Below, in pieces: positions 42,500 to 48,440 of a stretch of 64,000 nt of DNA (position 1 is its first letter; each line of letters begins with the position of its first letter). The stretch is from an uncultured bacterium (GTDB taxonomy: Bacteria; Fermentibacterota; Fermentibacteria; Fermentibacterales; JCC-6): contig CAZKJG010000016.1 in the NCBI GenBank assembly GCA_964553045.1, positions 494 to 64,493 on the forward strand, written 5' to 3'. The notes under the pieces were generated by a model. The model saw only the letters and a list, made by a program, of their open reading frames with translations. It made no database searches and was not told the origin of the DNA. Position numbers and translations under genes: made by a program.

Positions 42500-42964
42500 C
42501 TATTCGAAACGCGCCAGGAGGTCGCCGACCTCCGATGGTCTCACAGTACCCACAACCTCGCCGTTTACGGCTACGGCGGGGGCCAGTCCGCAGCAGCCCA
42601 GGCATCTCACCCGTTCCAGCGAGAACCTGCCGTCTTCGGTGGTCTCCCCCTCCTCAATGCCCAATTCCCTCTCCAGAGCCGACATCAGCCTGGGGGCGCC
42701 CTTCAGAAAGCAGGCGGCGCCCATGCAGACCTGGATATTCCTCTCCCCCCGGGGCTTCAGGCTGAAGCCCGAGAAAAAGGTAGCCAGATGGAAGAGCCTT
42801 CCCCGGGGTACGCCGATCAGCAGAGCCAATCTTCCCAGGGCCTGCTCGGGTATGTACCTGTAGATCTCCTGGACGTCCTGCAGCATCTCGGTGGCGTACT
42901 CGGGGTCGCGGTTCCATCTCTGCACAATGCGGTCGATTCTCTCCAGGGCATCCACCCTAATCAC
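42500..42964 (-). CDS. HydC/HoxE/NuoE-like thioredoxin-like [2Fe-2S] subunit
   Basis: CMGACFLKG...CLGCCGLAP cluster motifs. GTG start inferred near 42955-42964 at the AOR-N stop; plus or minus 9 nt uncertain. Confidence 0.7.
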   Translation of the reverse strand: MIRVDALERIDRIVQRWNRDPEYATEMLQDVQEIYRYIPEQALGRLALLIGVPRGRLFHLATFFSGFSLKPRGERNIQVCMGAACFLKGAPRLMSALERELGIEEGETTEDGRFSLERVRCLGCCGLAPAVAVNGEVVGTVRPSEVGDLLARFE

Positions 42965-43793
42965 CACCCTCGTCGCAAGGATCGCCGCCACAGGGGATTT
43001 CCTCCTCCAGGACCAGCTTGGAACATGCGGCAGGGGCCTTGACCACAAGGGCCTTAAGGCCCTTGCGCCGAAACACCGAGCCGGCTCCCCCCCGGCCACC
43101 CTGGAAGGTCCGTATCGTCCTCCCCCGGGGGTCCCACCATGAGAGGCCGAGTGAGCCGATCCAGCTGTTCTCTGCACCCCTGCCGGCGGTGACAGTGGAG
43201 AGCAGCCTGCGATCTTCGTCCTCCCCGGAGTACATCTCGAAGAGCTCACGCACCGCCAGGTGGGTGTCCGTGGAGAGTAGCGGGCTCTCTTCCAAGGTTA
43301 CCCGGCCCTCGGTGCCGTCAATTCTCACGATGACGTCCGTTTCCGCCTTGCCCACCAGCACCAGCCCGTCGAAGCCGGCGAACTTCAGCAGGGGTCCGAA
43401 ATGGCCGCCGGCGCTGGAATCCACGACCGCCCCGGTAGTGGGTGATATTGTCGCAATGGAGGAGTATCCCGCACCGGGAAACAGCGCCGTGCCTCCGAGG
43501 GGCCCGGATGATATGCATATGGGATTCCCGTCGCTGTCCCACTTTGTCTTCGGAGTGGTCTCCTGCCAGGCCATGAGGAGGTTGAATCCCCTGCCTCCGA
43601 CGAAGAGGTCCTTCATGCTCTCGGTTACGGGAACTGTCCTGAAGGAGGGCTCGGATACGTTCACTCTGAGTATCTCGCCCGTGTAGCCCTTCGCGGCCCC
43701 TCTGGGATCGTAGGAGAACTCCGCCAGGACCTTCTGAGCCTTCAGAATATCCCGGGCTGTCCGCTTCTCGGCCATGCGCATCCCCCGGTTCAT
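42957..43793 (-). CDS. AOR N-terminal domain (domain 1) as a stand-alone protein
   Basis: Collinear with the AOR N-domain: GYTGEILRVNVSE, GGRGFNLLM, GPLGGTALFPGAGYSSIATISPTTG, GGHFGPLLKFAGFDGLVLVGKAE, VTAGRGAENS. Ends after about 210-240 aa, without domains 2-3. Confidence 0.8.
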   Translation of the reverse strand: MNRGMRMAEKRTARDILKAQKVLAEFSYDPRGAAKGYTGEILRVNVSEPSFRTVPVTESMKDLFVGGRGFNLLMAWQETTPKTKWDSDGNPICISSGPLGGTALFPGAGYSSIATISPTTGAVVDSSAGGHFGPLLKFAGFDGLVLVGKAETDVIVRIDGTEGRVTLEESPLLSTDTHLAVRELFEMYSGEDEDRRLLSTVTAGRGAENSWIGSLGLSWWDPRGRTIRTFQGGRGGAGSVFRRKGLKALVVKAPAACSKLVLEEEIPCGGDPCDEGGD

Positions 43794-44038: not shown

Positions 44039-45052
44039 ATGAGAGCTTTGCTTCTTCTTGCGCTGGTTCCGGCCATAGCCTTTGGGGCGAGCGTGGTCAA
44101 GACGATAGATGCCCCCGATAGCGGCATCGCCGGCCTCGCCTGGGGCTCGGGAAGCCTGTGGGCGTCGGACGGAGGCACCGGCAACGTGTACGAGCTGGAC
44201 CCCGCTGACGGAACGGTTCTCAGCTCGTTCTACTGCGACAACGGAACACCCGGGGGGCTGGCTCACATGTCCGGCGACCTCCACGTGCTCAACTCCGAGT
44301 CGGGCACCTACGTCGGCTACGTCTACAAGTACTCCGAGGGAGGGTCCTACCAGGGCGCATACGACACGACCTGTTGAGGCAGCGCCCTCTACCAGTCGGT
44401 GACTGGTATAGCTTCCGACAACACATCTTACACCTACGTCCTTGGAGACGGCTACTACGACGACCCCGTCGTCGAGTACTTCAACAGCAGCGGCAACGTG
44501 GGAACCTCTCCCTACATGCAGGACATGCCGGCCCTGTCCTCGCACTACGACATAGCCTACGAGGGCGGCGACGGCGACGGCGACATATGGGTCGCCTGCG
44601 ACGCGGCCGACAGTCCCATAAGATCATACGACACCGACGCTCAGATGGTTGCCTGGGTGTCCGGGGGCGATCTGCCCTCCGGCGCGCAGATTCGGGGATT
44701 GACCTTCGATACCAACGGATACCTCTGGGCCAGCGACTACAACGCCCAGAAGATCTACCAGATCGATCTGACCAGCGGCGCCGCCGAGGGAGTCAGCTCG
44801 ACGGTAGGAGGCATGGCCCTTTCCGTTTCCAGCAACCCGTTCTTCGGTTCGGTCACCCTCAGCCTCAGTGGCGTGGAGGGGACCGCCGAGCTGGCCGTCT
44901 TCGACCTCGCCGGCAGAACGGTTGCCCGGGAGCGGATCGGGAGCGGCTCTTCGATTGCCTGGAACGGGGAAGGAGTGCCCAGCGGCACCTACCTTGTCCG
45001 CGCCACCACCGAAGACGGTGTCTCGGCCACCAGGCTGGTCACCAAGCTCTAG
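44039..45052 (+). pseudogene. Secreted beta-propeller-like (NHL/SGL-like) protein with T9SS CTD, interrupted by an in-frame TGA
   Basis: ATG at 44039 after GGAAGGAGG. Signal peptide MRALLLLALVPAIAFG. In-frame TGA at 44375-44377 (YDTTC*GSALYQ) joins two same-frame ORFs. C-terminal SSNPFFGSVTLSL...LAVFDLAGRTV...GTYLVRATT CTD. Confidence 0.5.
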
Positions 45053-45200: not shown

Positions 45201-45890
45201 TCAGGCCCGTACCTGTACCTCTTCCACATAGGGCTCCACGGCCCGCGCGGTCTCCTCCAGATACCCCTTTGGATAGGGGGGGAGGTCGCGGTAGGCGTCC
45301 GACAGGGTCTTGCCGCCGCGGAATCTCTGAAGGACGTAGCGCTGGAAGGGGCCGTGCGTTCGAAGTATTCGCTCCACGCCCTCCTTGTCCACGATGCCGG
45401 GAACCATGGTGGTTCGGATCTCGTAGGCCGGAAGTGCCCTGATCATCTCCAGGCTCTCCACGACATCATCGAATCGGGCGTGACCTCCGGTGGCTTTCCC
45501 GTAGGCTCCCGGCGCGGCCTTGAGGTCCATCGCCACGTAGTCGACCAGGTCCAGGACCTCCCGGAGCCTCTTCGGCAGGGTACCGTTCGTGTCCAGCTTC
45601 ACCGGAAGGCCGGTTTCCCTGCGCACGCTGAGAATGAAATCGGACAGGCCGGGGCTGAGAAGGGGCTCACCGCCGGTTATGGAGACTCCCTCTATGAAGC
45701 CATCCCGGGCCTTGAGGCGGTCGAGGACGATGTCGGCCGACAGGGTGTACTGGTCCGCCAGGAGGTCGGGACGCACCAGCTCGGGGTTGTGGCAGAAGGG
45801 GCAGTAGAGGTTGCAGCCACCGAAGAAGACCACCGAGGCTATCTTGCCGGGGTACTCTATGAGGCTGGTTCCCTCGAAGGAGCGGATCAA
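45201..45890 (-). CDS. nrdG: Anaerobic ribonucleoside-triphosphate reductase activating protein (radical SAM)
   Basis: CNLYCPFCHN radical-SAM motif close to the N-terminus, typical NrdG size. Non-ATG start, exact start uncertain. Confidence 0.8.
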   Translation of the reverse strand: MIRSFEGTSLIEYPGKIASVVFFGGCNLYCPFCHNPELVRPDLLADQYTLSADIVLDRLKARDGFIEGVSITGGEPLLSPGLSDFILSVRRETGLPVKLDTNGTLPKRLREVLDLVDYVAMDLKAAPGAYGKATGGHARFDDVVESLEMIRALPAYEIRTTMVPGIVDKEGVERILRTHGPFQRYVLQRFRGGKTLSDAYRDLPPYPKGYLEETARAVEPYVEEVQVRA

Positions 45891-46072
45891 CTCCCGGATT
45901 CCTGCGCGGAGCCGATGCTCACGTACTCGCGCTGCTCGAACTCTTCGCGCTTGCCGCGGTTCCAGTCCTGCACCGGACGGTAGTAGCCCACTACCCTGGA
46001 GTAGACCTCGGTCCTTACGGCTTTGATCCTGGTTCCCCTGTCGATTCCCTCTTCCGAGCGCGCGTCTGCCAT
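45887..46072 (-). CDS. Small protein carrying an NrdD-type glycyl-radical motif (RVVGYYRPV...WNRGK)
   Basis: 61-aa ORF MADARSEEGIDRGTRIKAVRTEVYSRVVGYYRPVQDWNRGKREEFEQREY.... ATG one nt after the nrdD TGA, with GGAG/AGGTG upstream. Stop overlaps the nrdG start. Confidence 0.55.
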   Translation of the reverse strand: MADARSEEGIDRGTRIKAVRTEVYSRVVGYYRPVQDWNRGKREEFEQREYVSIGSAQESGS

Positions 46073-46073
46073 T

Positions 46074-48191
46074 TCAGATCTCCACCTTTCCAACCTCCAG
46101 AGAGAGGCTCCTCTGGTTGGAGCTCTCCCCGCTCTCGTGCATGACCCTGTAACTCCCCTCCTGTAGGAGGTCTCCGCCGTTCCAGACCATTTCCATGCCG
46201 TGCTTGGCTATCTCCTCGTCGGTGTGCGGGTAGGGACATACGAAGTGCTCGCCGGCTATGTAGCCGTGAACGGGGCATATGGAGAAAGTGGGAGTAAAGC
46301 TGAAGTAGGGAAGGCTGAAGTTCTCCACTACGGTTCTGGCCAGCTTTCGGACCATCTTCCAGTCCGTGATGGCCTCTCCTATGAACACGTGCACCACGGT
46401 CCCGCCGGTGAACTTGCCCTGCAGGGGGTCCTGATGGCCCAGAAGCTCGAACATGTCGGTCCTAACGTCCACCGGCAGATGGACGGAGTTGGTGTAGTAG
46501 CGGTTCGTGCCCCCCATCGCGGCAGCGTCCGGGAACCTTTCGAGGTCCTTTCGGGCCAGCCTGTAGGAGGCCCCTTCGGCCGGAGACGCCTCCAGGTTGT
46601 ACAGGTGGCCGCTCTCGTGCTGGAACTCCGTGAGCTTGTCGCGCATGAAGTCAAGGACCTCCAGAGCCCAGTCACGGGACCGGGAGTCCTCGATGCCCTG
46701 GCCTGTGAAGTTGATGCAGGCCTCGTTCATGCCGATGAGGCCGACGGTGGAAAAGTGGTTGGCCCAGTACGATCCCTGCTCGCTCTTGATGCTGCCCAGG
46801 TAGTGGCGCGTATAGGGGTAGAGTCCCCGGTCGGTCAGTTCCTCTATGAGCCCCCGCTTCAGCTCCAGCGACTCCCGCGCCGCCTCCATGACCGCGCTGA
46901 GCCGGTTGTAGAACTCGTCGTGGTTGCCGGCTGTGTAGGCTATCCTGGGCAGGTTTACGGTCACCACTCCGATGGAGCCGGTGAGCGGGTTCGACCCGAA
47001 AAGCCCGCCGCCGCGCTTTCGCAGCTCGCGGTTGTCCAGCCGAAGACGGCAGCACATGCTGCGGGCGTCGTCGGGGTCCATGTCCGAGCCCACGAAGTTG
47101 CTGAAGTAGGGGATGCCGTACTTGCCCGTCATCTCCCACATGGGGCGCAGCTCCTCGTTGTCCCAGTCGAAGTCCTCGGTAAGGTTGTAGGTGGGAATGG
47201 GGAACGTGAATATCCTCCCCTTCTCGTCACCCTCCATCATCAGGCGGGAGAATGCGCGGTTGAAGACGTTCATCTCCTCCTGGAAGTCGGCGTAGGTCAG
47301 CTCCCGCTCCCCGCCGCCCACCACCACTTTGCGTTCGGCCAGCGAAGGCGGGACCTTGAGGTCCATGGTGATGTTGGTGAACGGCGTCTGAAAGCCGACC
47401 CTCGTGGGGATGTTCACATTGAAGAGGAACTCCTGCAGACACTGCTTGACCTCGTTCTCGTTGAGGCGGTCGTAACGGATAAACGGGGCCAGCAGGGTAT
47501 CGAAGTTGGAGAACGCCTGGGCACCGGCCGCCTCCCCCTGCAGGGTGTAGAAGAAGTTCACTATCTGCCCCAGTGCCGTCCTGAGGTGCGAGGGAGGTGC
47601 CGACTCGATCTTGCCCCTGGCCCCCCGGAAGCCGTACCGAAGCAGCTCCATCAGGTCCCAGCCCACGCAGTAGGGGCCGAGTATGCCGAGGTCGTGTATG
47701 TGCATGTCGCCGTTGTCGTGGTACTCCTTTATGCGTGGTGTGTAGATCTTGCTCAGCCAGTACCTGGCCGTGATGGAGGAGGAGAGGTAGAAGTTCAGAC
47801 CCTGGAGGGAGTAGTTCATGTTGGAGTTCTCGTTTACCCTCCAGTCCTCCCGGCCGATGTAGTCGCCGACCAGGCCGTCGATTCCGCTGAATATCCGGTC
47901 GACCTCGCGGGCCTCGTTGCGCTTCTCGCGGTAGAGGATGAAGGCCCTGGCCGCGGCGGTCAGGCCCCGCAGCACAAGGGTCTCCTCGATGAAATCCTGT
48001 ATCTGCTCTACGGTGGGGACGGTGCCGCCCTTGAAGAATTCCATGTACAGTGCGGCCTCCACCTGGCCGGCCAGGTCCGCCGGGCTCTCTTCGCTCTCGC
48101 CGACCCTGAGGGCCTTCTCGATGGCCAGCTGGATCTTCCTCTTGCGGTAGGTGGCAATCCGTCCGTCACGCTTGCGTATCAACCAGTCCAT
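46074..48191 (-). CDS. nrdD: Anaerobic ribonucleoside-triphosphate reductase (class III) with ATP-cone, apparently lacking its C-terminal glycyl-radical motif
   Basis: N-terminal ATP-cone (IRKRDGRIATYRKRKIQLAIEKAL), class III RNR core, degenerate Zn site CPVH...CPYPH. The ORF ends without an RVxGY motif. Confidence 0.9.
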   Translation of the reverse strand: MDWLIRKRDGRIATYRKRKIQLAIEKALRVGESEESPADLAGQVEAALYMEFFKGGTVPTVEQIQDFIEETLVLRGLTAAARAFILYREKRNEAREVDRIFSGIDGLVGDYIGREDWRVNENSNMNYSLQGLNFYLSSSITARYWLSKIYTPRIKEYHDNGDMHIHDLGILGPYCVGWDLMELLRYGFRGARGKIESAPPSHLRTALGQIVNFFYTLQGEAAGAQAFSNFDTLLAPFIRYDRLNENEVKQCLQEFLFNVNIPTRVGFQTPFTNITMDLKVPPSLAERKVVVGGGERELTYADFQEEMNVFNRAFSRLMMEGDEKGRIFTFPIPTYNLTEDFDWDNEELRPMWEMTGKYGIPYFSNFVGSDMDPDDARSMCCRLRLDNRELRKRGGGLFGSNPLTGSIGVVTVNLPRIAYTAGNHDEFYNRLSAVMEAARESLELKRGLIEELTDRGLYPYTRHYLGSIKSEQGSYWANHFSTVGLIGMNEACINFTGQGIEDSRSRDWALEVLDFMRDKLTEFQHESGHLYNLEASPAEGASYRLARKDLERFPDAAAMGGTNRYYTNSVHLPVDVRTDMFELLGHQDPLQGKFTGGTVVHVFIGEAITDWKMVRKLARTVVENFSLPYFSFTPTFSICPVHGYIAGEHFVCPYPHTDEEIAKHGMEMVWNGGDLLQEGSYRVMHESGESSNQRSLSLEVGKVEI

Positions 48192-48391: not shown

Positions 48392-48440
48392 GCACAATAT
48401 CTTGTATTTGGGTCGAAGAACAGAATACAATATGTAGTAG
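48392..48440. promoter_or_regulatory. Two candidate NrdR boxes upstream of nrdD
   Basis: gcACAATATCTTGTat (48392-48407) and atACAATATGTAGTag (48425-48440) match the NrdR consensus acaCwAtATaTwGtgt at 13/16 and 12/16, spaced 33 bp, in the 400-bp region 5' of nrdD. Confidence 0.5.

Follow-up and report, generated by a model that had tools for sequence, protein, structure and literature searches.

Glycyl-radical enzymes are described as single chains, in which a C-terminal domain swings out of the barrel for activation and back again for work. How could a class III ribonucleotide reductase (RNR) operate if its catalytic protein, NrdD, ended before this domain? The question is raised by an nrdD–nrdG locus of an uncultured bacterium of the Fermentibacterota, found in a stretch of 64,000 nucleotides (nt) of contig CAZKJG010000016.1 (positions 494 to 64,493; assembly GCA_964553045.1), here called the window. 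Its nrdD encodes a protein of 705 amino acids (aa), and the class III RNR glycyl-radical motif, EVYSRVVGYYRPVQDWNRGK, is encoded in a separate open reading frame (ORF) of 61 aa between nrdD and nrdG. Judged from sequence, the locus very probably encodes a class III RNR of two polypeptides, with a radical domain that would act in trans and be activated by NrdG.

An earlier sequence-only reading of the window had noted that the 705-aa NrdD ends in LEVGKVEI without a radical motif. This is borne out: a motif search for [YF][ST]R..G[YF] or RVxG[FY] found no match in the large ORF, and its match to PF13597 (NRDD; residues 121–658, 572.6 bits against a cut-off of 26.2, E 1e-171) covers profile positions 1–530 of 562. 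The protein begins with an ATP-cone (PF03477, residues 5–93) and also matches the NrdD models NF006126 (971 bits, cut-off 548, profile 5–659 of 684) and TIGR02487 (493 bits, cut-off 326). The missing end is found in the small protein, MADARSEEGIDRGTRIKAVRTEVYSRVVGYYRPVQDWNRGKREEFEQREYVSIGSAQESGS, which aligns with positions 533–560 of 562 in PF13597 and 650–682 of 684 in NF006126, its segment EVYSRVVGYYRPVQDWNRGKREEF matching the final 28–33 positions of the NrdD models in Pfam and NCBIfam. Apart from PF13597 no Pfam family was matched by the small ORF, and its NCBIfam matches are to NrdD models only. The clean division of the NrdD domains between the two ORFs supports a reading as two polypeptides.

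Among the features expected of a class III RNR, the barrel, the finger-loop cysteines and an adjacent NrdG are present, and the 705-aa ORF does not itself carry the radical domain. Cys380–Cys381, in the motif SMCCRLR, is invariant in an alignment of 14 diverse homologs, and the protein encoded next to the small ORF matches the NrdG2 model TIGR02495 (167.8 bits, cut-off 131.15) as well as PF04055; these conserved catalytic residues and the NrdG2-type activase beside them likewise support two polypeptides. The zinc-ribbon region of the window protein reads C639-x2-H642...C652-x3-H656, whereas fused relatives of the family have CPxH...CPxC; the second CxxC is thus replaced by CPYPH. In fused relatives only 4–25 residues lie between the cysteine motif and EVYSR. 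No second nrdD was found within the 64-kb window.

The same division is seen against known structures. When the two window proteins are concatenated, residues 155–652 of the large subunit align with chain positions 103–608 of T. maritima NrdD (PDB 4COI), and residues 20–50 of the small ORF (KVDEYMRIVGYLVPVSAFNKERRE...) align with positions 612–643. Gly29 of the small protein is paired with the RIVGY glycine (chain position 621 as counted from the alignment), and C380/C381 fall opposite the finger-loop CC (SCCRL). The split form is longer than T. maritima NrdD by about 72 residues at the break, between the cysteine and radical motifs (large subunit 653–705 plus small protein 1–19). The small ORF alone had no match in a PDB sequence search at E up to 0.1. 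An AlphaFold2 (AF2) model of the concatenated proteins, built from a 101-row alignment of fused proteins, large subunits and small proteins, has a mean predicted local distance difference test score (pLDDT) of 82.8 and a predicted template modeling score of 0.79, and a Foldseek search of the PDB with this model returned the class III RNRs of P. copri, S. thermophilus, T. maritima and T4 as top fold matches. Residues 678–713, which comprise the end of the large-subunit tail and the first eight residues of the small protein, have a pLDDT below 50; residues 714–760, the core of the small protein, are modeled as a beta-hairpin plus helix, in which two strands lead to the turn with Gly29 and are followed by a short strand and the helix; block means here are 62–87.

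To see how widely this layout occurs, a profile built from three large subunits was run against GTDB genomes, one for each species, and the 80 best loci were retained. An nrdD without radical domain, followed by a separate small ORF with the motif, was found in 60 of the 80, a proportion that is not an estimate for NrdD overall since the loci were picked by similarity to the window protein; 18 are fused, one (L073) is split differently and one (L074) resembles an overlapping frameshift. The large subunits are 55–73% identical across phyla with invariant catalytic motifs. The order nrdD (700–707 aa), small ORF, nrdG is shared by the window and two other loci (L003 and L005), with three different junctions: gaps of 1 and 26 nt, and an overlap of 8 nt. 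Cultured strains are included: in Malonomonas rubra DSM 5091 the large subunit ends ...CPHHHDDEQAA and is followed by a small ORF of 47–50 aa (M..AKCDAKTEVYSRVCGFFRPVQQWN), with AAGGAG ahead of it and a spacer of 20–29 nt depending on the start codon chosen, and then by nrdG; Thermosulfurimonas dismutans S95 has the split layout; and Thermodesulfatator indicus DSM 15286 encodes a 690-aa large subunit without radical domain, an identical copy of which, in another assembly, has a 58-aa ORF with an NRDD domain 15 nt downstream. The arrangement is also frequent at the protein level. A word-indexed search of 5.8 billion proteins with the small ORF gave 419 matches, of which the best 120 are all 47–88 aa long with an NRDD Pfam domain, the named sources among them being MAGs (metagenome-assembled genomes) of Candidatus Aegiribacteria, Fermentibacteria, Sabulitectum and WOR-3. 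When 1.84 billion representatives at 50% identity were searched exhaustively with the small ORF by phmmer, 2484 matches had E up to 0.001; the 150 best are short without exception (48–202 aa, mostly below 110), although some could be fragments. Among the best 120 large-subunit clusters found with a 14-sequence profile, 60 are without the radical motif and 60 have it.

In a neighbor-joining (NJ) tree built from the core of the large subunits (residue 1 up to CPYPH), the 60 split loci fall in two clades set apart by fused relatives. Clade A (31 loci) comprises Fermentibacteria including the window, WOR-3, Thermodesulfobacteriota, a MAG of the Aquificales and two unclassified MAGs, and is sister to fused Caldisericia proteins, which share CP.(E/D)H(S/T).EEL..YG followed after about 15 residues by EVYSRIVGYF. 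Clade B (29 loci) consists of Desulfuromonadales (Malonomonas, Desulfuromusa, Pelovirga, Geopsychrobacteraceae) and lies among canonical fused proteins with CPxC-x3-C-EVYSR. The anatomy of the two clades differs as well. Large subunits of clade A carry a tail of 30–55 residues past CPYPH, and their small proteins have about 10–25 residues before the motif; those of clade B stop 5–9 residues past a CPHH motif, without a tail, and their small proteins (47–52 aa) start M-A-T-K-C-D-x-K-T-EVYSRVCGFF, keeping the cysteine that precedes EVYSR in fused forms, with RVCGFF and EVYARVCGFF as variants of the radical motif. This topology and the differing anatomy indicate that the split arose at least twice, in clade A and in clade B.

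Several single loci add to this picture. In a Candidatus Moraniibacteriota MAG (L073:4056–4500), nrdD ends ...CPKCVVNQEVEVVRKVCC and the radical motif follows about 270 nt downstream, in a stop-to-stop segment of 112 codons (the protein being at most that long) that has its own CxxC...CxxC ribbon and carries TEVYSRIVGYIRPV; this looks like a third, independent split. A fused NrdD on a JGI 3300000866 contig (P0190, locus L088) reads CPYEH...YGIEVNSRKQIPCEVYSRVVGYF (...CPYEHSEENYSKYGIEVNSRKQIPCEVYSRVVGYF) and is intermediate between the Caldisericia and Thermodesulfobacteria types; its neighbors encode a PD-(D/E)XK nuclease, a Gp3-like protein and a fusion of UDG (uracil-DNA glycosylase) with DNA polymerase A, and the element carrying it is probably viral. 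One locus from a MAG labeled Chloroflexota (L059) is nearly identical to that of a Desulfuromonadaceae MAG (L063) and nests in clade B, the label probably being a binning error. C-terminal redox cysteines are known in class I and II RNRs, and the ends of Thermodesulfobacteriota small subunits recall them, since these finish in cysteine pairs (..TGCGCR, ..GVCACSK, ..RRTCGC; L086:4589–4765 and L027–L030); several fused NrdDs also end in CC or C-x-C, and the window small ORF is without such cysteines. The tails of clade A share [ST][DE]EE[IL]..[FY]G, EG[SA]Y[RK] and then a hydrophobic LFL..G or KVFLNKAK end (window positions 46077–46220). These elements, for which AF2 confidence is low, could form a docking site for the small subunit.

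The features of the window locus are collected in table 1. The sequence-only reading had placed the small ORF one nt past the nrdD stop, behind a Shine–Dalgarno (SD) sequence and with its own stop overlapping the start of nrdG, and on each of these points we agree: GGAG lies 7 nt ahead of the ATG at 46072, and the TGA at 45889–45887 overlaps the TTG at 45890. The upper end of its span of 45887–46095 takes in an upstream in-frame TTG at 46093, which had been listed as the ORF start; the SD-preceded ATG is the likely start. By its sequence, the junction is of the termination–reinitiation type of coupling; overlaps such as ATGA, TAATG and TGA-N-ATG are typical of translational coupling and would fit a joint production of both chains. 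About 200 bp upstream of nrdD are two boxes 33 bp apart, which presumably resemble the NrdR operator consensus, so that the operon would be a candidate for regulation by NrdR. Their pattern has no further match in the window, 0.07 being expected, with the pattern taken from the boxes themselves.

Table 1. Coordinates of the split nrdD locus and associated elements, given as positions of the window.
Feature	Position	Strand	Basis
nrdD-large, class III RNR catalytic subunit, 705 aa	46074..48191	-	ORF, Pfam, NCBIfam
nrdD stop TGA; protein end ...LEVGKVEI	46076-46074	-	
Junction: SD-like AAGGTGGAG (46088-46080), ATC, TGA, spacer base A (46073), ATG (46072)	46073..46088	-	
Small ORF, 61 aa, stand-alone NrdD-type glycyl-radical domain, proposed radical-bearing subunit	45887..46072	-	
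Gly29 codon GGC in RVVGYY, predicted radical glycine	45986..45988	-	Codon count; T. maritima NrdD alignment
Cys380-Cys381 codons (SMCCRLR), finger-loop pair expected to take the radical	47049..47054	-	Homolog alignments
Large-subunit C-terminal end, residues 639-705: CPVHGY...CPYPH, then lineage-specific tail TDEEIAKHG...EGSYR...LSLEVGKVEI	46077..46277	-	
nrdG, radical-SAM (S-adenosylmethionine) activase, 229 aa, TTG start 45890	45201..45890	-	TIGR02495, PF04055, gene calls
Two 13-nt palindrome-like boxes, ACTACATATTGTA and ACAAGATATTGTG, candidate NrdR boxes	48393..48438	-	Pattern match

Two options had been left by the sequence-only reading, a frameshift that split nrdD or a radical domain made as a stand-alone subunit. 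A sequencing or assembly indel in a normal fused nrdD of this contig is conceivable in that the small-ORF frame is open for about 45 codons upstream of the ATG, where one indel gives a continuous frame, and such an overlapping frameshift is resembled by a Woesearchaeota MAG locus (L074:5000–5100), whose radical motif lies in an overlapping +1 frame beginning inside the nrdD end and which looks like a genuine frameshift or an assembly error. However, the assemblies of two sequencing runs (SRR7048227 and SRR7048228) both have contigs that encode the identical 61-aa protein with the same junction, TGA-C-ATG stands at this place in L006, a related species whose large subunit is 94% identical, and two ORFs are present in 60 species genomes, where the spacer can reach 194 nt and contain stops as well as an SD site for the small ORF. 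The roughly 72 extra residues compared with T. maritima NrdD also mean that the split form is not one base away from a fused gene, and we regard an indel as a practically negligible explanation. Programmed recoding, by a +1 frameshift at ATC-TGA-A or by stop read-through, would instead make a fused NrdD and leave the small ORF without a separate product. It draws on the SD-like GGTGGAG just ahead of ATC TGA A, a context that we take to be loosely reminiscent of the prfB site, and on eight relatives in which the small ORF is in the nrdD frame. Against it, the junction is unconserved. From nrdD stop to small-ORF start the distance ranges from -14 to +194 nt (overlaps of 14, 8, 4 and 1 nt, or gaps of 1–194 nt), TAA, TAG and TGA are all used, and, with nrdD as reference, the small ORF is seen in each of the three possible frames. 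Every split locus has an SD-like motif (such as GGAGG or AAGGAG) ahead of the start codon chosen for the small ORF, be it ATG, GTG or TTG. Stops occur within the long spacers, and many relatives have a small-ORF frame that closes only a few codons before the start. Given such variable overlaps, spacers and closed frames, no single frameshift or read-through could fuse these pairs. The window junction itself has no slippery codon, re-pairing from AUC to UCU would be poor, and the 7-nt spacing from SD to ATG fits ordinary initiation, so that recoding appears very improbable. Two of the checks that the sequence-only reading had proposed came out against a fused product: no conserved programmed frameshift site was seen, with a geometry differing in nearly every lineage, and among relatives the split recurs, with TGA-N-ATG in L006 and other junctions elsewhere. 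Its frameshift option is rejected on the 60 split species loci, the non-homologous junctions, their own SD sites and purifying selection on the small ORF; the same comparative evidence supports the stand-alone subunit.

That selection was estimated as Nei–Gojobori dN/dS on a gap-free core of 36 codons around the motif. The median over 124 unsaturated pairs of clade A is 0.10 and that over 57 pairs of clade B is 0.035, and between the window and L006 the core differs by seven synonymous changes and one nonsynonymous change; the small ORF is under strong purifying selection. These values bear on the view that the split locus is a decaying or nonfunctional RNR, or that the large subunit has a radical-independent role, which could appeal to the fact that the locus is known here from genes alone. 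The conservation of the large subunits and their catalytic motifs across phyla, the gene order nrdD–small ORF–nrdG kept in the window, L003, L005 and M. rubra, and the candidate NrdR boxes upstream speak against it as well, and we hold it to be highly unlikely. It might further be asked whether the small protein is a true spare part of the GrcA kind, with the large subunit keeping a radical site in its tail, for example at EG[SA]YR. In a HMMER alignment the window tail EIAKHGMEMVWNGG lies against RITGY...WNSGK of P. copri NrdD, MAFFT set EGSYR opposite VGYFR of fused NrdDs, and the best local match by hhalign pairs GSYRVMHE with GYYRPVQD. This hhalign comparison of 33 tails with 33 small proteins is, however, not significant (probability 0.8%, P 0.07); the tail glycine is unconserved (DKAYR, EEAYR and TSAYR occur), WNGG is specific to the window lineage, and the tail is lacking altogether from clade B large subunits. 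A radical site in the tail has very little probability, and a relic radical domain there is for the same reasons (lineage-specific WNGG, unconserved glycine, nonsignificant hhalign) unproven.

A two-polypeptide class III RNR would work as follows. The 705-aa protein would supply the ATP-cone, the catalytic barrel and the finger-loop cysteines, and the 61-aa protein the glycyl-radical domain, which has an SD and an ATG of its own for separate translation and would be translationally coupled to both neighbors, nrdD on the upstream side and nrdG on the downstream side. NrdG, a radical-SAM enzyme, would take a hydrogen from Gly29, either on the free peptide or in the complex. The glycine loop of the small protein would then enter the large-subunit barrel in the way that the C-terminal domain of a fused NrdD does, and the radical would move to Cys380/381 and on to the substrate. 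Since the large subunit has no such domain, the small protein would have to be an obligate subunit and not a spare part. By analogy with GrcA/YfiD (PMC8683613) one may speculate on a benefit, namely that oxygen cleavage at the radical glycine would destroy just a 7-kDa peptide that is cheaply replaced. Several points weigh against this interpretation, besides the similarity-based choice of the 80 loci: the 61-aa product and its complex are known here from genes alone, the placement of Gly29 beside Cys380/381 is carried over from fused NrdD, the tree behind the two origins is a simple NJ tree without support values, and another RNR in these genomes would make the split NrdD dispensable.

Stand-alone radical domains were also seen in viral sequences. 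A scan of IMG/VR with the 61-aa ORF gave 80 loci (L089–L168), with the motif found in 79. In 67 of these 79 viral or prophage loci the reading frame runs for at most about 150 residues before the motif, which therefore cannot be the end of a full-length NrdD; the frame is 45–125 codons long in most. An NrdD profile found no NrdD core within 3.5 kb of any of the 67, whereas the same search finds the core in 10 of the 12 fused loci of this set. Three types can be distinguished: proteins of about 46–50 aa with a KC..K-TEVYSR start, proteins of about 70–90 aa starting with NGDLxLDNG, and proteins of 80–120 aa with a CxxC..CxxC ribbon. One example is a 45-aa ORF that lies with MuB-like, Gam and GemA genes in a Mu-like prophage early region (L102:3480–3617), and another is a 115-aa zinc-ribbon version between an integrase and ThyX (L148:3270–3617). 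Going by their 3.5-kb surroundings, these phage orphans are candidates for radical domains that may be supplied in trans to a host enzyme.

Taken as a whole, we see an even chance that the stand-alone NrdD-type peptides are a large, unannotated family that provides class III RNRs of several phyla with obligate trans-acting radical subunits, that fission happened independently at least two to three times, and that phage and prophage orphans, which have no nrdD within 3.5 kb, may combine with the enzyme of the host. In that case the class III RNR of many organisms would be a radical system of two components, one of them a cofactor protein that is exchangeable and disposable.

Other genes of the window were noted in passing. 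A 278-aa ORF (42957–43793, minus strand) matches only the N-terminal domain of aldehyde:ferredoxin oxidoreductase (AFOR_N), and is followed on the same strand, to about 40639, by NuoE-like (2Fe-2S thioredoxin-like) and NuoF-like (Complex1_51K plus 4Fe-4S) genes; a stand-alone AFOR_N beside such a diaphorase-like module is unusual. A protein encoded at 44399–45052 (plus strand) has a weak match to Por_Secre_tail, a sorting domain of the type IX secretion system.

To our knowledge, GrcA/YfiD for pyruvate formate-lyase (PFL) is the sole trans-acting radical domain known. According to a 2026 review (PMC13450708), formate lyases are the only enzymes for which spare-part proteins are known; reviews also speculate about further cases (PMC13450708, PMC8683613), and Andorfer et al. 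consider that other members of the family may have such proteins. We found no description of a split or truncated NrdD in open-access full text, including papers on RNR phylogeny and structure, where absence is no proof; in the literature searched, the split class III RNR, whose function we infer here, is thus without prior description. The sequence-only reading had called a separate radical subunit unusual for class III RNR, which is true of this literature and not of the sequence databases, where the arrangement is common. A radical domain that is always a separate peptide of 5–7 kDa would be a minimal NrdG substrate, would make activation and catalysis physically separable, and would allow a direct test of whether replacing an oxygen-cleaved radical domain is a general repair strategy. 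These ideas are directly testable because the layout occurs in cultured strains (M. rubra and T. dismutans, and T. indicus via its identical large subunit). Annotation is affected too, as the small ORFs are mostly unnamed, called "hypothetical" or wrongly labeled full-length reductase, and a length or radical-motif filter may cause surveys to drop or misclassify the truncated large subunits.

In comparison with canonical NrdD and NrdG (T. maritima NrdD 4COI; NF006126/PRK08270), the window proteins have the same ATP-cone, barrel, CC finger loop, EVYSRVVGY motif and NrdG2-type activase, but the radical domain is on a separate chain, about 72 residues are added and the second CxxC is replaced by CPYPH. 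The small ORF is of the NRDD type with no PFL-type match and sits in an nrdD–nrdG operon, unlike GrcA, which we take to belong to the PFL-type Gly_radical family PF01228. With GrcA/YfiD (and T4 Y06I) it would share the character of a small stand-alone glycyl-radical protein, presumably activated by the cognate radical-SAM activase and acting in trans on a large barrel subunit (PMC8683613). The analogy to GrcA drawn in the sequence-only reading therefore holds for the separate radical protein and fails in that the PFL repaired by GrcA has a radical domain itself, the window large subunit having none and the small protein matching the NrdD Pfam family; the small proteins are also shorter (48–61 aa) than YfiD (about 14 kDa; PMC8683613). 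An RNR catalytic chain encoded by two consecutive genes is likewise found in the split class II RNR NrdJa/NrdJb of Pseudomonas aeruginosa, in which the zinc finger and accessory domains are on the C-terminal piece (Crona et al. 2015, cited in PMC9669993). NrdJa/NrdJb differs in being B12-dependent, and the radical is not carried by its separated piece. Among class I RNRs, the alpha subunit of a phage is likewise split, by a homing endonuclease. In class I RNR, a stable radical resides on a separate smaller subunit and is delivered to a cysteine of the catalytic subunit; the resemblance of alpha and beta to the two window proteins would be a functional analogy without homology, because beta is a ferritin-like metalloprotein with long-range transfer, whereas the 61-aa peptide presumably inserts directly into the active-site barrel.

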